Shown: positions 3,341 to 38,469 of the stretch, piece by piece | How the letters are laid out: every line of letters begins with the position of its first letter | Position numbering within the stretch: position 1 is the stretch's first letter | Source of the DNA: Escherichia phage AnnaReinhart_Bas75 | Sequence record: PQ850596.1 | Direction: 5' to 3' (one strand) | DNA length: 43,870 nucleotides | Made by a program: the position numbers and the translations under genes | Notes under the pieces: model-generated | Seen by the model: only the letters and a program-made list of their open reading frames with translations | What the model was told of the DNA's origin: nothing | The model's database searches: none

Positions 3341-4417
3341 ATGCTATTAACTTTAGCGCCACAGGGTTTATCTATGAGCTTACTTACATCCCTAATCAGC
3401 CATCAGATATGGCTGCAACGCACCGCATCCGGTGAGGTGAAAGACCTCACGCCGTTCATTCAGGAGATAAGGGATGAAATCAAACGGCAGGTGCTGTTAT
3501 TCGGTGACGACGGTCGCAGCACTGCGCGACTGAATAAACTGTTACGCGACCTGGAAGAAGCACTAACCGGTATTACGGGTGACTGGCAAACAAAGCTAAC
3601 AGACGACCTTAAGGAACTGGCGGCGTACGAGGCTGAGTGGAACGTAAAGACACTGACCGCCAACGTAGACGCGGAATTTGTTACGCCTACCGCTGAGCAG
3701 GTATGGGCCGCTGCCGAGTTTCAACCATTATCATTGAGCGACAAGCCCGTTGATTTCACCAAGCTGATGTCTGGATGGGGCGAAACGGAAGTAGCACGTC
3801 TTGTAACTGGAGTTAAGATGGGCTTTGTGCAAGGTCAAACCACACGGCAGATTGTTAAGAATGTTGTTGGCGCTGGTGGACTAGCCGACATCTCAGAACG
3901 TAACGCGACTACGGTAATCCGCACCGCGCTGTCCCACGTATCCAACGAGGCCCGTAACGAGACGTACCGCCAGAACGACGACATCATCGAGAAGTACGAG
4001 TGGGTGTCAACGCTTGACAGCCGCACCAGTACGATTTGCAGGGTCAGAGACGGGATGACGTGGGAAATTGGTAAGGGGCCGATGCCCCCAGCCCATCCGA
4101 ACTGCCGGTCGTGCACGGCTCCGGTAATCAGTTCCGAGTTCGACTTCCTCGATAAAGGCGCAAAACGCGCGGCTAAAGGCGCGGAAGGTGGCACTCAGGT
4201 AAGCGCAGACACCACTTACTACGAGTTCCTTAAACAACAACCGGCGTGGTTTCAGGACCAGGCGCTCGGCCCGGTGCGAGGTAAGATTTTCCGTAACAGC
4301 GGTATATCGCCGGAAGAGTTTCGCGTAATATCTGTAGATGGTTTCGGGAATCCGCTCACGCTTAAGCAGATGGCGGAACTCGATAAACGTGTTGCTGATT
4401 ATCTGAAAGGGGAATAA
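3341..4417 (+). CDS. head morphogenesis / minor capsid protein (Mu gpF / SPP1 gp7-like)
   Basis: 358-aa ORF following portal, the conserved position of F-like head morphogenesis proteins; alternative start at ATG 3374. Family assignment from position and general sequence character only. Confidence 0.55.
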   Translation: MLLTLAPQGLSMSLLTSLISHQIWLQRTASGEVKDLTPFIQEIRDEIKRQVLLFGDDGRSTARLNKLLRDLEEALTGITGDWQTKLTDDLKELAAYEAEWNVKTLTANVDAEFVTPTAEQVWAAAEFQPLSLSDKPVDFTKLMSGWGETEVARLVTGVKMGFVQGQTTRQIVKNVVGAGGLADISERNATTVIRTALSHVSNEARNETYRQNDDIIEKYEWVSTLDSRTSTICRVRDGMTWEIGKGPMPPAHPNCRSCTAPVISSEFDFLDKGAKRAAKGAEGGTQVSADTTYYEFLKQQPAWFQDQALGPVRGKIFRNSGISPEEFRVISVDGFGNPLTLKQMAELDKRVADYLKGE

Positions 4418-4878
4418 TGATGGGCTTTTTCAAAGTAACTGACGTACCGTCTCGTCGCGTAGTCCAGTACGCCCGCGTGTCTGGCTCTGGCGAGAACGTG
4501 GTATTTATTGAGGACGAAAGTGTACTCGGTACACCGGTAGATGATATGCCGTTTGCAGATAAAACCGGTATTGCGTTGCCCGCCGCCGGTATGCTTTATG
4601 AAATTCCGTATCTGGCGGACGCTGGCGACGTGTATTTCTCTGTGCAACCAAAAGACGCTGAACTGGCCGACGGCAGCGCGACTATCACTGTCGAAGTTAA
4701 AGCAGGTGAAGCGCCGTATGCACTGACCTGGTACAAAGACGGTAAGGAAGTTGTCAACGCCCCGGAAGAGGCACTTTCCTTGACGGTTAACGCAGTGGGT
4801 GAATACTTCGTTAAAGTTACCGATGCTGATGGTGTAGAGGCTGTCAGTAAAGCTGCGAAGGTCACTAAGCCCGAATGA
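4417..4878 (+). CDS. Ig-like domain protein (possible capsid decoration protein)
   Basis: 153 aa; C-terminal segment TITVEVKAGEAPYALTWYKDGKEV...GEYFVKVTD resembles Ig-like (I-set/Big-type) domains; paralogous to 8190..8540. Confidence 0.5.
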   Translation: MMGFFKVTDVPSRRVVQYARVSGSGENVVFIEDESVLGTPVDDMPFADKTGIALPAAGMLYEIPYLADAGDVYFSVQPKDAELADGSATITVEVKAGEAPYALTWYKDGKEVVNAPEEALSLTVNAVGEYFVKVTDADGVEAVSKAAKVTKPE

Positions 4879-4881
4879 TAA

Positions 4882-4905
4882 AAGGCCCCATTAAGGGGCC
4901 TTAGT
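4882..4905. terminator. bidirectional rho-independent terminator AAGGCCCC-atta-GGGGCCTT
   Basis: 8-bp GC-rich stem flanked by A-run upstream and T-run downstream; lies between convergent genes 4417..4878 (+) and 4908..5111 (-). Confidence 0.7.
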
Positions 4906-4907
4906 TT

Positions 4908-5111
4908 TCAACGGAATCTTGTGTTTAAATCCTGCTCGTGGACGACCCTCAGAACAGTGTCATAATCCCCGTATCTTCCAGGTTCAAATATATCTAATGC
5001 CTTGTAAGCAGACATTGCGTCAGGGAAAACCTGCAGAACCTTTTTAACCCGGCACAAGTCACCGTCGAACTCTTCATCGAACTCTTGAACTACTTCGCAA
5101 ATTGCATACAT
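4908..5111 (-). CDS. hypothetical small acidic protein (67 aa), single-gene minus-strand insert
   Basis: ORF with AGGAGG RBS 8 nt before ATG, own early-type promoter (5139..5167) and shared terminator; opposite orientation to flanking structural genes. Confidence 0.6.
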   Translation of the reverse strand: MYAICEVVQEFDEEFDGDLCRVKKVLQVFPDAMSAYKALDIFEPGRYGDYDTVLRVVHEQDLNTRFR

Positions 5112-5138
5112 TTTTCACCTCCTGTTTAAGTTAACTGA

Positions 5139-5167
5139 ATAGTACCCTATTATATTGGGGTGTGCAA
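5139..5167 (-). promoter_or_regulatory. sigma70-like promoter TTGCAC-N17-TACTAT containing palindrome AATAG-N4-CTATT
   Basis: Read on minus strand: TTGCAC accccaatataataggg TACTAT, then AGGAGG RBS and ATG of 4908..5111. Near-identical to sites at 14262, 37025 and 38441. Confidence 0.6.
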
Positions 5168-5442
5168 ACTATTTATTTACGTATTCCAGTTATTCCACCG
5201 AATTGTAAATGTTGGAATAAACTATTCGAATAGTTGACTTTTCACTAAAAATATGATAAGCTCCACCTGAGCTTGTGAAATATGAACAAGCGACCGCGGC
5301 GCGGGCAGGTAACGGAGCGGGACGTAAGTCCTGAGTGTAGTTACGCTGACGCGTTCGGAAGGGCCATACTCTATTGCTTGTGTAAAAAGTAACAGGTTTA
5401 CTGAGATTACGCCGTTTCTATGTTTAAATGATAAGGACTAGC

Positions 5443-5468
5443 GCCCTGCTTTAAGGCAGGGCTTTACT
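5443..5468 (+). terminator. hairpin GCCCTGC-N-GCAGGGC followed by TTTACTT
   Basis: 7-bp stem with T-rich 3' flank, immediately upstream of the Rz RBS. Confidence 0.4.
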
Positions 5469-5486
5469 TATCGAGAAAGGAGAAAC

Positions 5487-5873
5487 ATGAATCTTAAAGC
5501 AACTGTCGTAGCAGGAGCATGTTTCATCATCCTGGTTTACGCACACGGCATCTACCAGTATCGCAGCGGATGGAACGAAGGCCGGGCTAATCTCGTTTCG
5601 CAGCAACAGCAGAAAGCACAGGCTGAGTTAGCGAAGAAAACACAACGGCAGCAGCAGGATGAATCGAAGGCCGCCGCCGCTGACAACGAAGGCAAGACGA
5701 AATCAGAGGTGATTACCCGTGAAGTCGTTAAGTACATTAAAACGCCTGGTCGCAGTGTGTGCGCTTTTGACCCTGAGCGCGTGCAGCTCAAGTCCCGCGC
5801 CGTCGCAAACGCCAACTCCATCCCCGGATACGACGATGATGCAGCCGCCGTGCAAACTGGCACCGCCAAGTAG
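5487..5873 (+). CDS. Rz: i-spanin (Rz-like inner membrane spanin)
   Basis: 128 aa; N-terminal transmembrane segment (VVAGACFIILVYAHGIY), then Gln/Ala/Lys-rich predicted coiled coil; contains an embedded out-of-frame lipoprotein ORF, the hallmark Rz/Rz1 arrangement. Confidence 0.6.
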   Translation: MNLKATVVAGACFIILVYAHGIYQYRSGWNEGRANLVSQQQQKAQAELAKKTQRQQQDESKAAAADNEGKTKSEVITREVVKYIKTPGRSVCAFDPERVQLKSRAVANANSIPGYDDDAAAVQTGTAK

Positions 5874-5982
5874 CGACGCCGACGAGGATTTGGCTATCGA
5901 CGTTCAGAACGCTGAATGTGTACGGCAACTGAGGCTGAAAGTGTTTATGTTGCAGGATTACGTGAGGAATATTCTGGAATAG
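5719..5982 (+). CDS. Rz1: o-spanin (Rz1-like outer membrane lipoprotein), overlapping the 3' end of Rz in another frame
   Basis: GTG start with GAGGTGA RBS; signal peptide ending in lipobox LSAC; Pro-rich mature region (SPAPSQTPTPSP...PPC), typical of Rz1. Confidence 0.55.
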   Translation: MKSLSTLKRLVAVCALLTLSACSSSPAPSQTPTPSPDTTMMQPPCKLAPPSSDADEDLAIDVQNAECVRQLRLKVFMLQDYVRNILE

Positions 5983-6064
5983 TTGCCTTGCATGTTGGAA
6001 TAATTTATTCTTGACATGTAAATCCGGGTGGCCCGGGTTCCAACGTCCAGGGGACATACTGACT

Positions 6065-6769
6065 ATGAATCGTTTTTTACGTTATCCGTTCCAGGAAGAA
6101 GCTGGGGCAGAAGATAAAGCTGGTGGCGGTGACGCGCCGAAAATGTTCACCGCTGAAGAAGTTCAGGCGCTGATTGAGAAAGAAGTTGCCGGGCTTAAGG
6201 CTAATCAGGAAGCATTGTTGGCGGAGAAGAAAGAAGCCGCTCGCAAAGCAAAAGAGGCCGAAGAAGAACGGCAGCGCGCGCACCAGGAGGCGTTAAAAGC
6301 CGCTGGTAAGATGGACGAGTTCGAAAAGACGATTCGTAGCCAGTATGACCCGGTGTTAGCCGAGAAAGACGGTCGCATCTCCAGAATGGCAGAGCGTATC
6401 CTCGGCAGCGAACGTAAAGCGGTGCTAGGCTCTTTCGCGGGTGACTTTATTACCCCGGAAGCAGTGGACATTCTTGCGCCGTTCGTTAAGACTGAGTTCG
6501 AAGGCGATGATGTGGTTACTAAGTTTGTTGGTGCAGACGGTAACGTAATCACGACTGACCCGGAACAGTTCCGCAAATACCTGCGCGAACACAAGGCGTT
6601 TTCGCATTTGATTAAAGCAAATGCAGCTTCCGGCGGCGGGGCTTCCGGTAGCAAAGGCGGCGGGGCCGCACCAGCGTTTAAAGACATGAGTGAAGCGGAG
6701 CGTATCGCTCTGTACGAATCGAACCCTGCCGAATTTGAACGGCAACTTAAAGCCCTGAGGAAAAAATAA
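6065..6769 (+). CDS. scaffolding protein
   Basis: Highly charged, Ala/Glu/Lys-rich coiled-coil-like protein immediately upstream of the major capsid gene; ORF listed from TTG 6011, ATG at 6065 preferred. Confidence 0.6.
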   Translation: MNRFLRYPFQEEAGAEDKAGGGDAPKMFTAEEVQALIEKEVAGLKANQEALLAEKKEAARKAKEAEEERQRAHQEALKAAGKMDEFEKTIRSQYDPVLAEKDGRISRMAERILGSERKAVLGSFAGDFITPEAVDILAPFVKTEFEGDDVVTKFVGADGNVITTDPEQFRKYLREHKAFSHLIKANAASGGGASGSKGGGAAPAFKDMSEAERIALYESNPAEFERQLKALRKK

Positions 6770-10873: not shown

Positions 10874-11286
10874 TGGGCTACTTTGAGGACTTAACAAAAG
10901 CGTTCGATGTTCCGCTGGTAGCCTTCGGAACCGCCAACGGCATCAAGGTTGCGCTTGAAAACATCGACGCGCCGACGTCAACCGATACGCCGTATCTGGC
11001 GAGTTACATGCTACTGGCAGATACCGAGCAGGCGGATTTGTTCTTCACTGAGCAACGCTCTGGTATTTATCAGGTAGACATTAACTACGCATCGGTGAAA
11101 GGTAGCGCGCCAATCAATAAAATGGCAGACTTACTTAACACGGCGTTTAAAGCAGGTAAGTCATTTTCGCGTAACGACATCTGCGCCGAGGTTCAATCGG
11201 TTAGCCTGGGGCCGCTGATTGTAGAAAACGGATGGGCCAAACGACCATTGTCAATTAACTTTATTGCATTCACCAAGAGGCTGTGA
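10873..11286 (+). CDS. putative tail terminator / tail completion protein (137 aa)
   Basis: Position immediately upstream of the major tail protein gene; start overlaps previous stop. Confidence 0.45.
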   Translation: MGYFEDLTKAFDVPLVAFGTANGIKVALENIDAPTSTDTPYLASYMLLADTEQADLFFTEQRSGIYQVDINYASVKGSAPINKMADLLNTAFKAGKSFSRNDICAEVQSVSLGPLIVENGWAKRPLSINFIAFTKRL

Positions 11287-11288
11287 AT

Positions 11289-12455
11289 ATGGCTACAACT
11301 CCTTTTAAGGGCGCGAATACCGCGCAATTCTATGTGGCGGAAACTACCCCTGGCGTAACACCGACTAACCCGGTATGGTCGCCGTTGCGTAACACGGGCG
11401 GCGTTCCCGCTGTAACCCGCGATGCACTGACTTCCAACGAACTGGACGGCAGCCGTGAAACTACATCCATCCGAACCGGTAACAAGCAGGTTAGCGGGGA
11501 GTATGCCATCGAACTTAGCTCTCGTAGCCAGGATGATTTCCTTGCGGGAGCGATGACTTCTACGTGGCAAGCTGGGGTAGAGATTACTGGCGCCGGAATT
11601 ACGGTCGCCCCAGCAGGTAAAACATTCACCCGCGCTGCCGGTAGCTTCATTACTGACGGTGTAGAAGTTGGCGACCTTATTGCGTTCACCGACTTAACCG
11701 GCGACAACGCAAAACCGTTTATCGTGACCGCGGTTTCCGCTCTGGTAGTTACGGGCGCAGGTATTCAACACACGCTGACAGCAGAGACAGTAACCACTGA
11801 CGCAAAAACTGGCGACAAGCTGGAAACCGGTAACGCGTGTAAGACGTTCTCCATCCTGACGTGGTTCAAGGGCCAGTGTGGTAACCCGGACGCGTACATG
11901 CTGACCAAAGGTGTGGAAATCTCTGGCTTTACCGTAGAGCAGGCGGTTAACGCCATGGTCACCGGCAGCTTCCCGTTCATCGGCCTGAGTCAGGAGATTC
12001 TTACCGCGCCGCCGTCTGGCTCTGATTTCTCTCAGGTTACGTTCACCGATGAGCCGTTCTCGTCGGTAGATGTGTCGGTGTTCGATGGCTCCACGCCGTT
12101 GCGTTGCGATACTCTCACCATCACCAACGACAACGGAGCTTCCGCGCAGTTCGAACTCGGTAACAGTAGCGTGGCGTTCGTCGAACGTGGACGCGCAGCT
12201 AACACATTCTCTATCTCTGGCAAGCTGTACGACATGGCGATGATTCAGAAGTTTATCAACGAGCAGCAGGTAGAGATTAACTCTATTCTGGCAGGGGTAA
12301 ACGGGGCTATGTCTTTCAGTTTGAAACGTGCAGAGCTTACGGCGGTTACACCTGAGATTGGTGGGCCTGAGTCAATCACTCAGTCCATTGAAGGCCAGGC
12401 TACCGGCAATCAGTACCAGTCGTCTATCGTAATTCAACGTATCACCTACGCATAA
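11289..12455 (+). CDS. major tail protein
   Basis: 389 aa, Thr/Gly/Ala-rich; AAGAGG RBS; followed by strong terminator; located upstream of chaperone-tape measure genes. Confidence 0.6.
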   Translation: MATTPFKGANTAQFYVAETTPGVTPTNPVWSPLRNTGGVPAVTRDALTSNELDGSRETTSIRTGNKQVSGEYAIELSSRSQDDFLAGAMTSTWQAGVEITGAGITVAPAGKTFTRAAGSFITDGVEVGDLIAFTDLTGDNAKPFIVTAVSALVVTGAGIQHTLTAETVTTDAKTGDKLETGNACKTFSILTWFKGQCGNPDAYMLTKGVEISGFTVEQAVNAMVTGSFPFIGLSQEILTAPPSGSDFSQVTFTDEPFSSVDVSVFDGSTPLRCDTLTITNDNGASAQFELGNSSVAFVERGRAANTFSISGKLYDMAMIQKFINEQQVEINSILAGVNGAMSFSLKRAELTAVTPEIGGPESITQSIEGQATGNQYQSSIVIQRITYA

Positions 12456-12460
12456 AACTA

Positions 12461-12483
12461 AGGCCCCTTTCGGGGCCTTTTTC
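12461..12483. terminator. bidirectional terminator AGGCCCC-tttc-GGGGCCT with flanking A and T runs
   Basis: Between convergent major tail gene (+) and minus-strand cassette; same stem sequence as terminators at 4882 and 24518. Confidence 0.7.
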
Positions 12484-12714
12484 TCACTCATCAATATTAC
12501 TTCGATACTCCCGTAACTTCTCCAGACTTTCAATTGCTTCTGCTAAGTCGGTTCCGGTGTCCTTATGCCCGCGAAGACCCATGCACAATAACTTCTTCAA
12601 TGCGTGCTGTAGTGCGGGGTCACGGATGTCGAAGGCACGGAGAACATCGTAAACGTCTACGGTCATAGTGCTGCCGTGAGTGTTTGTCATTGTTCGGTTG
12701 TATTTTGAAGTCAT
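12484..12714 (-). CDS. hypothetical protein (76 aa), last gene of minus-strand insert
   Basis: Start overlaps stop of phosphoesterase gene; no recognisable motif. Confidence 0.5.
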   Translation of the reverse strand: MTSKYNRTMTNTHGSTMTVDVYDVLRAFDIRDPALQHALKKLLCMGLRGHKDTGTDLAEAIESLEKLREYRSNIDE

Positions 12715-13841
12715 CCCAGCATCTCCGGTGAAATAGTTAAACGTGCGACCTCGCCATATTCGGCGCTATAAGTAATTACATTTGCACTACGGCCTGACAT
12801 CCACCCGCCGCGGGAGGCATAGGCGTCTTTAGCCGCTAAGGTGCGGTGTTGCTCAACAATCATGTTACGGCTTTCTACAATCTTCTGGTGGTGCAGGTGG
12901 CCTACGTGGGCGTAGCTATAGACACTCTCACCGAACGCTTTGCGGAATTTGGCAATCATAACCGGTTCGATAGCATCGAATCGCGCCTTATGCCCGTGGT
13001 GAAAGAACAACGTCGTTTTTCCGTGTTGCACCATCTTGTAAACATCCGGCGACGTATCGACAATCACTCGGCTGTCGTTCGAATATAAAACTGTGAACAT
13101 TTCAGCCAGCCATACAGAGCCTACAGGGTCATGGTTCCCCTGTACGATAAGCAAGCGAACATTTTTATGTTTAACCAGTGCCATATCTACAACACGGCGT
13201 ACCATACGAATCATGTAGCGGACGAGTTTCTGGTAGCGAGTGTCTGCGTCCAACACGTGACGCGACTCAGGTGTAACGGCATCCAGACTATCGAAGTGCG
13301 CGAAATCACCCAGCAGGTTAATAACTCCTGTTCCTGCATCCGGTGCTTTCTGAAACGCCGCGTCGAACCAACGAGAGAACAGGTCTTCCGCAATCTTTAT
13401 ATCCCAGTCGTCGCCGCTCTCGTCGGCCCAGGCAAGCATACCGAGATGGAAATCAGATACCGTGTAAAGATTGAGTAGCTTGTCGTCGCGTTTGGCTCGA
13501 GTCGCTTTAGCCGGCGCAACTGGCGTAATCTCTGACTTCATGCCTTCAATCACGGCTTTCATCAACTCGACCTGACGTTCAGCGTCGGTGTCTGTCTTAA
13601 CCCATTGCAACTTAGTATTGCCGAACTCGTCTACCAGAGACGACGTCCCTTTAATCTTGTAGCCGTCTGGGACAAGGTGGCTAACGTCACGCCCGTGGCC
13701 TACACCTTTCTTAGCCAGCTTCGCTTTACGGATACGAATAACTCGGTCTGAGATGCCGTATTTACGGGCGATGTCTACATTCTTCATCCCGGCGTTCAAT
13801 TCTTCCTGTAACTGTTCGTCGGTTATTTTCTTCTGGGCCAT
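12711..13841 (-). CDS. HTH domain fused to calcineurin-like metallophosphoesterase
   Basis: 376 aa; N-terminal HTH-like segment (KNVDIARKYGISDRVIRIRKAKL); C-terminal phosphoesterase motifs in order: SDFHLG (D-x-H), GDFAHFD (GD-x-x-D), GNHD, then His-rich HHGH and GHLHH. Confidence 0.7.
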   Translation of the reverse strand: MAQKKITDEQLQEELNAGMKNVDIARKYGISDRVIRIRKAKLAKKGVGHGRDVSHLVPDGYKIKGTSSLVDEFGNTKLQWVKTDTDAERQVELMKAVIEGMKSEITPVAPAKATRAKRDDKLLNLYTVSDFHLGMLAWADESGDDWDIKIAEDLFSRWFDAAFQKAPDAGTGVINLLGDFAHFDSLDAVTPESRHVLDADTRYQKLVRYMIRMVRRVVDMALVKHKNVRLLIVQGNHDPVGSVWLAEMFTVLYSNDSRVIVDTSPDVYKMVQHGKTTLFFHHGHKARFDAIEPVMIAKFRKAFGESVYSYAHVGHLHHQKIVESRNMIVEQHRTLAAKDAYASRGGWMSGRSANVITYSAEYGEVARLTISPEMLG

Positions 13842-13906
13842 GCTTACTTCCTCGTGTTTAGGATTTGTCCTATTTAACCACAGTGGATTCCTTTAAATAA
13901 AGGCAA

Positions 13907-14233
13907 CTATTTACTTTCTGCGCCTATCGCCCACCCTGTCATTACCATTTGCAGACGGGTGGCTGTCAGTAGGCTATAGAAAGCATCTCCGTTTTTCTCT
14001 ACCGAACGTATCACTGTGTAGGTTACGGCCTGCGGGGGTAGGCCCGATTTACCAACCTCCACGGCGGCCTCACACTCGCGAACTGTAGAGTCCTTGAACG
14101 CCTTTACAATAGTAGGGTCGGCTTTATCAAGCACACCAGAAGTCATAAGAACAGATTCACTAAATACCTGTTCGCACGGGGCTCCAAAAGTAGCAAAAGA
14201 CATAAAACCCAGAGCTAGTACTAATTTACGCAT
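13907..14233 (-). CDS. secreted/periplasmic small protein (108 aa) with N-terminal signal peptide
   Basis: MRKLVLALGFMSFATFGA signal-peptide-like N-terminus; GAGGA RBS; first gene downstream of early-type promoter 14262..14290. Confidence 0.55.
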   Translation of the reverse strand: MRKLVLALGFMSFATFGAPCEQVFSESVLMTSGVLDKADPTIVKAFKDSTVRECEAAVEVGKSGLPPQAVTYTVIRSVEKNGDAFYSLLTATRLQMVMTGWAIGAESK

Positions 14234-14261
14234 AATTATTTCCTCAGTAAGTTACATGTGA

Positions 14262-14290
14262 ATAGTACCCTATTATATTGGGGTGTGCAA
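14262..14290 (-). promoter_or_regulatory. sigma70-like promoter TTGCAC-N17-TACTAT with AATAG-N4-CTATT palindrome
   Basis: Identical 29-bp core to 5139..5167; drives minus-strand cassette 14233..12484. Confidence 0.6.
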
Positions 14291-14397
14291 GTAGTGTGCT
14301 AGAATAAGTTTGCGCCTAGTGTCGCACACGAAAAGCGGGTGGTTCCCGCCTGGCGCATTAACCATAACCAGTAACCTCTTAACCAAAGGACTAAAGA

Positions 14398-14814
14398 ATG
14401 AAACTTTCTGATTTCTATTTTGCCGACCGCCACGCCGCCGGTACTAAAATGCCTATCCTTCTGCCCAGTGGTAAAGATTCCGGTGAATGGTTGCAGGTCA
14501 TCGGCCCCGATTGTGACGCTGGTGTTCGTGCGGGCCGTGCCTACACAACGGCAATTCGACGCCTTACGGAAGAACTTGCGCCATTAGATAAAGAGTGCGA
14601 GGCGCTGAATAACTGGGCGCGCTATAATGATGAGAAGGGCTGGCGGGTGATGGACCTGAACAAGCAGCTTGCCGTGGAAATCGTCACCGGTTGGTCATTC
14701 GACGAACCATTCAGCAAAGAGGCGCTTGCTAACCTGTTCGACCAGTACAGTGGGTTGGCAGAGGCCGTAGTTAAGCATCACACCGATAGCCGTGAGAAAC
14801 TCTCGGAAAAGTAA
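14398..14814 (+). CDS. tail assembly chaperone (gpG-like)
   Basis: 138-aa ORF directly upstream of tape measure; downstream ORF in -1 frame overlaps its end (see frameshift feature). Confidence 0.65.
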   Translation: MKLSDFYFADRHAAGTKMPILLPSGKDSGEWLQVIGPDCDAGVRAGRAYTTAIRRLTEELAPLDKECEALNNWARYNDEKGWRVMDLNKQLAVEIVTGWSFDEPFSKEALANLFDQYSGLAEAVVKHHTDSREKLSEK

Positions 14815-15176
14815 AAGCGCTGTATGAATTTGCGCAATGGTGCTTTGTCGACCGCCACAAACGTAAGCAATTCGACGACATCGCGGCGGGCCACCAGGCG
14901 GCTTTGATTGCAATGGGCGTGATTAAAGAACCGCAGATGAAAGAAGCGACGGGGCCGGAATGCCCCGTTTCTCTTATCGACGTGTTCGAGAAATACCGTG
15001 CCATTAAATTCCTACAGCGCGAAACAGATGATACTATCGTTATAATCCCGCGCGATGCGCTCAAATGGCAAGATTTGGTAGCGTTTCGTGATGTCGCCGG
15101 TTACGGCATAAGTTTGTTCGAAGCCGAGGTTATCATGGGCTTAGACGGAATATTTGAGGGCAGAGAAGATGGCTGA
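14398..15176 (+). CDS. tail assembly chaperone frameshift fusion (gpGT-like), requires -1 shift near 14805..14811
   Basis: -1 frame opens at 14796 (after TGA 14793-14795) and runs to 15176; zero frame stops at 14812; candidate slippery heptamer G GAA AAG at 14805-14811. Fusion ends where tape measure starts. Confidence 0.55.
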
Positions 15177-24517: not shown

Positions 24518-24540
24518 AAGGCCCCAAACGGGGCCTTTTC
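24518..24540. terminator. bidirectional terminator AAGGCCCC-aaac-GGGGCCTT
   Basis: Between convergent tailspike (+) and minus-strand replication-module genes; same stem as 4882 and 12461. Confidence 0.7.
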
Positions 24541-27260: not shown

Positions 27261-27579
27261 TTCTCAATTCCTTATATTGTTGGTGTATGTGCTTACTATA
27301 ATAGTCTGCTATTAGGGTGTCAATCTGTTTTATCGAACCAACGACAAAAACATTTGCACCACGTTTACGCATCCGCTCGTGCTCTCGTAACTGGTGCGGG
27401 TCTGGCTTCGTGTTTTCGTCTTTCTTAACCTCGACGAACCAGATGATGCCACCAGGGAGAATTACCAGCAGGTCGGGGGCGCCGGAGCGCCCCTCATAAG
27501 ACAGCTTACGAACGAGGCCACCAATGGCCTCGAATCGCTCTTTTGCGTATTTCTGCACGCGCCCCTCAGGCGTACTCAT
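27226..27579 (-). CDS. VRR-NUC domain nuclease
   Basis: 117 aa; PD-(D/E)xK-type core (GAPDLLVIL ... FVEVKK). Confidence 0.65.
   Translation of the reverse strand: MSTPEGRVQKYAKERFEAIGGLVRKLSYEGRSGAPDLLVILPGGIIWFVEVKKDENTKPDPHQLREHERMRKRGANVFVVGSIKQIDTLIADYYSKHIHQQYKELRNETRIRPQTST
27295..27323 (-). promoter_or_regulatory. sigma70 promoter TTGACA-N17-TATAGT with AATAG-N4-CTATT palindrome in spacer
   Basis: Minus strand reads TTGACA ccctaatagcagactat TATAGT; embedded in 3' coding region of VRR-NUC gene, upstream of 27069..27260. Confidence 0.55.
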
Positions 27580-30859: not shown

Positions 30860-30888
30860 ACTATAATAGCTAACTATTCAGGTGTCAA
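30860..30888 (-). promoter_or_regulatory. sigma70 promoter TTGACA-N17-TATAGT with AATAG-N4-CTATT palindrome
   Basis: Minus strand reads TTGACA cctgaatagttagctat TATAGT; upstream of 30174..30800. Confidence 0.6.
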
Positions 30889-33408: not shown

Positions 33409-33437
33409 ACTATAATAGCGAACTATTCACATGTCAA
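33409..33437 (-). promoter_or_regulatory. sigma70 promoter TTGACA-N17-TATAGT with AATAG-N4-CTATT palindrome
   Basis: Minus strand reads TTGACA tgtgaatagttcgctat TATAGT; followed by conserved AAACGAGAGG leader. Confidence 0.6.
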
Positions 33438-37024: not shown

Positions 37025-37053
37025 TTGCACACCCCAATATAATAGGATACTAT
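37025..37053 (+). promoter_or_regulatory. sigma70-like promoter TTGCAC-N17-TACTAT with AATAG-N4-CTATT palindrome
   Basis: Near-identical to 5139 and 14262 copies; followed by CGAAACGAGA leader, AGAGGAG RBS and ATG 37088. Confidence 0.6.
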
Positions 37054-38440: not shown

Positions 38441-38469
38441 TTGCACACTAAGATAGAATAGGCTACTAT
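38441..38469 (+). promoter_or_regulatory. sigma70-like promoter TTGCAC-N17-TACTAT with AATAG-N4-CTATT palindrome
   Basis: TTGCAC actaagatagaataggc TACTAT; followed by ACAAACGAGAGGAG leader and ATG 38501. Confidence 0.6.

Follow-up and report, generated by a model that had tools for sequence, protein, structure and literature searches.

What is a block of minus-strand genes doing among the plus-strand tail genes of Escherichia phage AnnaReinhart_Bas75, and what does the enzyme that it encodes act upon? The question is raised by positions 12,484 to 14,290 of sequence record PQ850596.1, whose whole stretch of 43,870 nucleotides, called the window here, is that of a Kagunavirus (subfamily Guernseyvirinae). 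The central gene of the block encodes a 376-aa metallophosphoesterase (MPE) with an N-terminal helix-turn-helix (HTH). Judged from sequence and predicted fold, this protein is best read as a variant of the Mre11/SbcD-type nucleases that has no partner protein and is tethered by its HTH. With moderate confidence, it is proposed to be a Mn2+/Mg2+-dependent DNA phosphodiesterase (exo- or endonuclease) of the Mre11/SbcD/PolD-DP1 branch, expressed early and held on DNA by its HTH. The proposal is supported by invariant catalytic residues, a profile match to Mre11/SbcD, the basic HTH, a context of DNA and nucleotide metabolism genes and a shared promoter element. Gene structure, conservation, the intact catalytic site, the fold neighbours and synteny were all observed directly in this analysis.

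The ORF listing places three open reading frames (ORFs) between the tail-tube gene and the tail-assembly-chaperone genes, with exactly the coordinates, strands and lengths of the three-gene reverse unit described in the initial annotation of this DNA. These genes, and the two domains of the central protein, are as follows.

13907-14233, minus strand: 108-aa protein (phrog_14165), in the upstream variable slot
12711-13841, minus strand: 376-aa HTH-fused metallophosphoesterase (phrog_704), the constant gene of the cassette
13710-13820, minus strand: HTH, probably of LuxR/FixJ (GerE) type, residues 8-44, from weak profile matches and local superposition
12714-13487, minus strand: metallophosphoesterase catalytic core, residues 119-376, from alignment, predicted structure and motifs
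12484-12714, minus strand: 76-aa small protein, in the downstream variable slot

The start of the 76-aa gene overlaps the stop of the 376-aa gene (ATGA). A tblastn search of 50,697 phage records found homologues of the 376-aa, 76-aa and 108-aa proteins in 2,036, 773 and 98 records, respectively, so all three ORFs can be regarded as real genes.

The catalytic core carries the motifs D130-F-H132, G178-D179-F-A-H182-F-D184, G235-N-H-D238, H281-H-G-H284 and G314-H-L-H-H318. The full set of metallophosphoesterase motifs claimed earlier is therefore complete, although motif II reads GDxxHxD and not the literal GDxxD. Conservation was assessed in an alignment of the protein with 118 homologues (119 sequences, 26-97% identity), in which D130, H132, W146, G178, D179, H182, D184, T190, G235, N236, H237, D238, H282, G283, H312, H315, H317, E330, H332 and D339 are invariant. 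All seven dinuclear-metal ligands are present and invariant (D130/H132, D179, N236/H237, H282, H315/H317), as is the general-acid histidine. Since all the metal ligands are conserved, the protein is expected to be an active enzyme. The family is divergent and its Pfam scores lie below the gathering thresholds (Metallophos_2, 22.1 bits against a cut-off of 27; Metallophos, 17.0 bits against 21.5), so superfamily membership rests on the motifs and the fold.

The fold was examined in an AlphaFold2 (AF2) model, with a predicted local distance difference test (pLDDT) of 88 and a predicted template-modelling score (pTM) of 0.76. It comprises a three-helix HTH (residues 8-44), a disordered linker (47-52), a beta-hairpin and helix (62-101) and the phosphoesterase core (119-376), which has the four-layer alpha/beta sandwich of the calcineurin-like superfamily. 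With complete motifs and this fold, the calcineurin-like assignment of the initial annotation was correct. The protein also matches phrog_704 over its full length (E 1.5e-162, residues 3-375 against profile positions 1-389 of 390). The label of that family, "DNA repair exonuclease", is an annotation transfer for which no experimental basis was found.

Within the superfamily, the nearest folds of the 376-aa protein are nucleases. A search of all Protein Data Bank (PDB) sequences with the family profile gave Thermotoga maritima Mre11/SbcD as the sole significant match (E 8e-5 to 5e-3; the next at E 0.2), while a search of PDB with the single sequence gave nothing significant. The profile match spans motifs I-III, with GGGDLLHADN of the family aligned to GDLLHSRN. 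The Mre11/SbcD-type motif II, GD(L/I)(F/L)(H/D), is present in a nuclease-type phosphodiesterase core, and the features of PPP/lambda-type phosphatases (GDxVDRG, GNHE and the PPP fold) are absent.

The resemblance to the cellular enzymes is confined to the core. Identity to Mre11/SbcD (T. maritima Mre11, S. aureus and E. coli SbcD; the phage analogues are T4 gp47 and T5 D13) is only 13-18%, and the alignments cover 183-188 residues of SbcD/Mre11 chains of 319-362 residues. In contrast to these enzymes, the 376-aa protein has neither a capping domain nor a Rad50/SbcC-binding tail, its core running to residue 376, and has instead the N-terminal HTH and the beta-hairpin/helix module. Identity to DP1, the small subunit of PolD and an archaeal 3'-5' proofreading exonuclease, is about 12%. 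The OB fold of DP1 was not recognised, no DP2-like gene is annotated, and the N-terminal module (HTH, beta-hairpin and helix) has no significant fold match. The T1-type phages that carry this nuclease gene are not known to have a polymerase of their own. A stand-alone member of the superfamily is the Pseudomonas putida MPE nuclease (PDB 6NVO), a Mn-dependent DNA endonuclease encoded in a nucleic-acid repair gene cluster, and one public record names a homologue of the 376-aa protein after it.

An N-terminal HTH had also been claimed, and several lines of evidence, each weak, converge on it, so that the domain is considered real. Residues 1-50 are basic (isoelectric point, pI, 10.1). Profile matches were found to GerE (E 0.026; 14.6 bits, cut-off 23.5) and FixJ (E 1.3 and 0.003), the latter also being the only, faint match in NCBIfam, and homologues carry recorded Pfam matches to HTH_8, HTH_30, HTH_23, HTH_28 and HTH_29. 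Using Foldseek, the HTH was superposed locally on those of DosR and EvgA at 0.6-0.7 A over 38 residues, with E above 0.1. When residues 1-118 were searched in isolation (model pLDDT 69), no match was obtained at E 0.001, only local superpositions on LuxR-type HTHs.

The evidence on expression comes from a repeated promoter-like element and from a hairpin at the cassette end, listed here with the flanking tail genes.

14262-14290, minus strand: promoter-like 29-mer TTGCACACCCCAATATAATAGGGTACTAT (TTGCAC-17-TACTAT), about 30 nt upstream of the start codon of the 108-aa gene
5139-5167, minus strand: identical copy of the 29-mer, upstream of a 67-aa ORF in the head-gene region
37025-37053, plus strand: near-identical copy, heading a rightward small-ORF array
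38441-38469, plus strand: fourth copy, with a diverged spacer, within the small-ORF array
12460-12479, both strands: bidirectional intrinsic terminator AAGGCCCC-TTTC-GGGGCCTT, ending the tail-tube transcript (plus) and the cassette (minus)
11283-12455, plus strand: tail-tube gene (Pfam Phage_tube_2, E 7e-38)
14398-14814 and 14904-15176, plus strand: tail-assembly-chaperone genes (Pfam Phage_TAC_4 and Phage_TAC_18)

Four matches to the pattern TTGCAY-N16-18-TAYTAT are present in the window, where 0.07 would be expected. Salmonella phage Jersey keeps both hexamers (TTGCAT-17-TATTAT) while its spacer has diverged, a phylogenetic footprint which supports the 29-mer as a real promoter. Both plus-strand copies head strings of small ORFs beside the point of divergence from the replication operon. 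Small-ORF strings at such a point are the usual arrangement for early genes. The label "early-type" follows from the copy at 37025-37053, which heads the small-ORF array. The early-type promoter of the initial annotation is thus upheld as a repeated promoter-like element, but a generic sigma-70 scan made no call at 14262-14290. That scan did call TTCACA-16-AATAAT at 14262..14235, which was set aside because transcription would start inside the ORF. At least two promoter classes appear to be present, since the minus-strand replication operon uses TTGACA-17-TATAGT (11/12 to consensus; 27295-27323, 30860-30888 and 33409-33437, all on the minus strand), a better sigma-70 match than the 29-mer.

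The 29-mer also bears on whether the 376-aa protein might be chiefly a transcription factor, whose HTH binds the 29-bp promoters and regulates early cassettes while the phosphoesterase is sensory or secondary. The HTH resembles the LuxR/FixJ type, a faint hit to phrog_836 (late transcriptional activator) was obtained, and the spacer CCCCAATATAATAGGG forms an imperfect palindrome (12/16), found at three promoters and holding a perfect TATAAT. The spacer is identical in two copies and one base off in the third. However, neither Jersey nor the fourth copy shares this spacer, other phage families retain the protein and not the 29-mer promoter, and the invariance of all catalytic residues across the family argues for an enzyme. 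A primarily regulatory role is thus regarded as highly improbable. The spacer itself could be an operator, or a mere trace of recent duplication.

What the enzyme acts upon was approached through its distribution and its genomic neighbours. An exhaustive search of 1.84 billion representatives placed the family in 4,567 clusters (50% identity) at E <=1e-3 and in 1,129 at E <=1e-30, most members being 370-420 aa long with an alignment that starts near the N-terminus. In the Drexlerviridae phages T1, KP36 and SG01 the gene follows those for a helicase, VRR-NUC and Dam and precedes the lysis genes; in Dhillonvirus (73% identity) it stands between lysis and terminase genes. Podoviruses (phiEa100/Era103 and Lidtsur) carry it behind genes for an exonuclease and endonuclease VII, with PNK and ligase nearby, a Vibrio phage behind SSB, and Campylobacter phage CPX, whose homologue has no HTH, behind a DNA ligase. 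Homologues are also found in Webervirus and Roseobacter phages. The 73% identity between Kagunavirus and Dhillonvirus suggests fairly recent horizontal exchange among small coliphages, since Dhillonvirus bov22_1 (homologue at 3992-5134) is otherwise unrelated to Kagunavirus.

Neighbouring genes were then clustered within 3.5 kb of the gene at 66 dereplicated loci, mostly of distant alphaproteobacterial-phage homologues from IMG/VR. The commonest neighbour was a DNMK-type deoxynucleoside monophosphate (dNMP) kinase (16/66), followed by a trypsin-like protease (15/66), an unannotated 271-aa family (13/66), a family with no Pfam match that looks HD-phosphohydrolase-like by eye only (8/66), DUF7768 (6/66) and dGTP_diPhyd_N (5/66). 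From these neighbour families it appears that the enzyme travels with genes of DNA and nucleotide metabolism and not with small hypervariable genes of the anti-defence type. Its behaviour is that of a DNA-metabolism gene, widespread and close to core, and differs from what would be expected of an accessory gene for anti-defence. It is already annotated in hundreds of public genomes.

This distribution bears directly on the early host-takeover or anti-defence role put forward in the initial annotation. Its nucleic-acid-acting part is the one preferred here, while the part concerning hydrolysis of nucleotide signals found no support. In that version, the enzyme would degrade the cyclic nucleotide or oligonucleotide messengers of CBASS, Pycsar, Thoeris or type III CRISPR. 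The known phage enzymes that degrade such signals, Acb1, Apyc1 and AcrIII-1, use other folds. Nothing in the data points to signal hydrolysis: the HTH fusion has no obvious role in attacking a small molecule, both the closest folds and every significant PDB sequence match belong to nucleases, and the gene is conserved in DNA-metabolism modules of more than 2,000 phage genomes, whereas known anti-defence genes are patchy. The protein has no similarity to any model of PADLOC in its 2023 library, which may predate the calcineurin-CE model. A signal hydrolase is accordingly considered very unlikely.

Another candidate role is that of an enzyme of nucleotide pools. Acting by itself, or together with the HAD phosphatase and dNMP kinase found in relatives, the MPE would interconvert deoxynucleoside tri-, di- and monophosphates (dNTP, dNDP, dNMP), NAD or ApnA, biasing the pools toward phage synthesis or against host defences. 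DNMK, dGTP_diPhyd_N and the family that resembles HD proteins by eye are enriched around the gene, and the PUA-Cal-HAD defence system pairs a calcineurin-like protein (calcineurin-CE) with a HAD phosphatase and hydrolyses dATP/dADP (bioRxiv 10.64898/2026.01.15.699771). On the other side, a polymer is favoured as substrate by the presence of the HTH, by a motif II that is Mre11-like (GDxxH) and by the ranking of the folds, and the PADLOC result applies here too, with the same proviso on the age of the library. This role is likewise given little credence.

A recurrent gene order raises another possibility. In K1H and L AB-2017 (both Kagunavirus), in KP36 (Webervirus) and in phiEa100 (Eracentumvirus), the MPE gene is succeeded first by the gene for a PNKP-type HAD phosphatase (Pfam HAD_PNKP, E 7e-20) and then by that for a P-loop kinase, which matches phrog_139 dNMP kinase at E 1e-39 to 1e-47; phiEa100 has a ligase after these. 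The 376-aa protein could then be an end-healing enzyme, acting on broken ends of RNA or DNA as a 2',3'-cyclic phosphodiesterase or as a 3'-phosphatase. Its partners would be a PNKP-type HAD phosphatase, a P-loop kinase and, in certain phages, a ligase, and together they would mend tRNA or DNA that host nucleases have cut. In its favour, the gene adjoins HAD_PNKP and the kinase in K1H, KP36, Era103 and Lidtsur, and a ligase gene stands after it in Era103 and before it in CPX. Healing by a metallophosphoesterase-type enzyme is established for Clostridium thermocellum Pnkp and lambda phosphatase (PMC2190708). End healing is nonetheless judged distinctly unlikely. What counts against the four alternatives is, variously, the HTH, the fold and motif evidence, how broadly the gene is conserved, or the lack of partner genes in this phage.

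Returning to the HTH-tethered nuclease, we infer its DNA substrate, timing and physiological role along the following lines. The cassette would be transcribed leftward from the sigma-70-like 29-bp promoter, the same element that serves the small, presumably early ORF array, and its transcript would end at the hairpin at 12460-12479. The basic, LuxR-like HTH probably tethers the enzyme to DNA, and may thereby stand in for the capping domain and the Rad50/SbcC partner of the cellular enzymes. Attack on DNA early in infection might serve breakdown of the host chromosome, supplying dNMPs, which in relatives with a dNMP kinase and 3'-phosphatase downstream would be re-phosphorylated. Alternatively, it might serve the trimming of DNA ends or intermediates in phage replication or recombination. 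Both roles are combined in T4 gp46/47, which acts in host-DNA breakdown and in recombination-dependent replication.

The closest functional precedent is found in Cluster A mycobacteriophages, where an early metallophosphoesterase is likewise encoded among replication genes (A10ZJ24 gp48; Bxb1 gp47). The MPE gp48 of A10ZJ24 is made early, breaks down the DNA of the host and is required for replication of the phage DNA in Mycobacterium tuberculosis (PMC12287305). The Cluster A protein differs in its length of 255 aa, in having no HTH and in a D-x-Q motif I. Since it belongs to a different subfamily, the comparison is one of "works like" and not of "member of". Bxb1 gp47 is also the Bxb1 recombination directionality factor (RDF). 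In the Bxb1 record NC_002656 the product names are shifted by one gene, with the RDF label on gp46 and metallo-phosphoesterase on gp47, so annotation labels in such records are unreliable.

Several observations weigh against the proposed early DNA nuclease. The nuclease assignment, though the best reading of the sequence, has a modest margin over non-nuclease members of the superfamily. The designation of the 29-mer at 14262-14290 as an early-type promoter is reasonable, with a temporal class derived from position only. The protein has no Mre11 capping domain, and no Rad50/SbcC partner is encoded in the cassette, annotated in the closest record or present beside the homologues of 13 annotated loci. 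By tblastn, no dNMP kinase, HAD phosphatase or ligase is present in the window, so a salvage or repair partnership is not obligatory. Membership in the Cluster A MPE/RDF family was tried and rejected (hhalign probability 2.1%, E 0.023 over 75 columns). Full-text literature searches returned no experimental work on the phrog_704-type family and no Guernseyvirinae transcriptome.

A bolder version of the same proposal is offered tentatively and is thought unlikely. T1 degrades host DNA through a genetically defined function that has not been assigned to a gene. The HTH-nuclease might be the unassigned host-chromosome-degrading enzyme of T1-like, Dhillonvirus and Jersey/Kagunavirus phages, tethered by its HTH and feeding dNMP salvage. 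In that case, the triggering or evasion of nucleotide-sensing and dNTP-depleting immunity by these phages would depend on it. As a further twist, the enzyme might regulate its own cassette, if its HTH recognises the 29-bp early promoters, which are partly palindromic.

The family is near-ubiquitous in T1-like, Webervirus, Dhillonvirus and Guernseyvirinae phages, small virulent enterobacterial siphoviruses used as model and therapy phages. Many of them have no polymerase or Rad50 partner, and distinguishing host-DNA degradation from phage-DNA processing and end repair would fill a gap in how they handle DNA. The answer bears on generalized transduction and on the triggering of nucleotide-sensing defences, and would define a minimal, Rad50-independent, HTH-tethered version of the Mre11-type nuclease. 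A phage with the identical cassette region, MarieHeimVoegtlin_Bas70, belongs to the public BASEL collection, which makes this a tractable target in a model phage collection.

The placement of the cassette was also followed among the relatives of this phage. The 2-kb cassette region is 100% identical to that of Escherichia phage MarieHeimVoegtlin_Bas70 (PQ850619; Kagunavirus) and 94-99.5% identical to other Kagunavirus isolates, and DNA-level matches were found in 451 phage records, mostly of Salmonella Jersey-like and E. coli Kagunavirus phages. The initial annotation had regarded the cassette as an unusual interruption of the tail operon, but the same position is occupied in Kagunavirus and Jerseyvirus generally. 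It had also set conservation at this position, together with a defined morphogenetic role, against its own proposal; the position is conserved, but no such role is defined. The window and PQ850619.1 differ outside the cassette region, so the Bas70 annotation was used as a guide only. Their coordinates agree at 4.9 kb (offset 0), are shifted by +1 at 8.7 kb and by +19 from 10.4 kb onward, and the window exceeds the record in length by 605 bases (43,870 vs 43,265). The early region differs, and the window has two plus-strand copies of the 29-mer where the corresponding stretch of PQ850619.1 has one.

Across Guernseyvirinae, the nuclease gene and its position between the tube and chaperone genes are constant while the flanking genes are swapped. 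The downstream slot holds the 76-aa gene in Bas70, a HAD phosphatase and dNMP kinase in K1H and L AB-2017, an HNH endonuclease, a 76-aa homologue and an Ant-like protein in Jersey, and an HNH endonuclease in other isolates. The DNA alignment of Bas70 and K1H breaks precisely at the nuclease stop codon and at the terminator. The upstream slot holds the 108-aa secreted-type protein in Kagunavirus and some Salmonella phages (the 98 records, all Guernseyvirinae-type), and in Jersey a 59-aa protein with two transmembrane segments that matches a superinfection-immunity PHROG. The Jersey cassette (3759-6696) thus reads 59-aa protein, nuclease, HNH endonuclease, 76-aa homologue and Ant-like anti-repressor, from which the locus appears to collect mobile and accessory genes. 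The flanking genes are interchangeable cargo and not obligate partners of the nuclease. The cassette can best be summed up as one conserved nuclease gene flanked by two slots for cargo, with a promoter of its own and a bidirectional terminator insulating it from the late operon.

Of the two cargo proteins in the window, the 108-aa protein is confined to Guernseyvirinae and has two cysteines and an N-terminal segment, MRKLVLALGFMSFATFGA, that was judged signal-peptide-like by eye only. The upstream slot thus holds a candidate envelope or exclusion protein. The similarity of the 76-aa protein to the phrog_2452 profile (E 2e-36) is limited to the C-terminal part of that profile, and homologues of the protein are mostly free-standing small ORFs. 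It bears no relation to the HAD phosphatase and dNMP-kinase genes which occupy this slot in K1H. That it might be a deletion remnant of the K1H P-loop kinase was considered and rejected: no BLASTP alignment was obtained, the DNA alignment shows a clean replacement from the nuclease stop codon to the terminator, and the gene is free-standing in Jersey and many other phages.

The bidirectional terminator of the initial annotation was confirmed as a hairpin with T-runs on both strands, called by the terminator scan on the minus strand and seen by inspection on the plus strand. The same form, AAGGCCCC-4nt-GGGGCCTT, occurs at 12460-12479, at 24518-24537 and at about 4880-4902, each time at a junction of convergent transcription, and appears to be the standard bidirectional terminator of this phage. 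A second reverse mini-cassette lies among the head-morphogenesis genes (4880-5167, minus strand). It consists of the 29-mer at 5167..5139, an AGGAGG ribosome-binding site, an ORF for an acidic 67-aa protein (5111..4908; pI 4.5) and the terminator AAGGCCCCTTAATGGGGCCTTTT, and has the same build as the nuclease cassette.

Between the cassette promoter and the chaperone start lie about 100 non-coding nucleotides (14291-14397), whose conservation between Kagunavirus and Jersey exceeds that of the neighbouring coding DNA. The 30-aa ORF annotated there in the Bas70 record is probably spurious. The segment matches no Rfam family, and its predicted folding is not significant (z -1.1, -1.7). Within it, GCGCCAGGCGGGAACCACCCGCTTTTC is nearly invariant, and the segment may be a late promoter or the 5' leader of the chaperone/tape-measure operon, which must restart past the bidirectional terminator.

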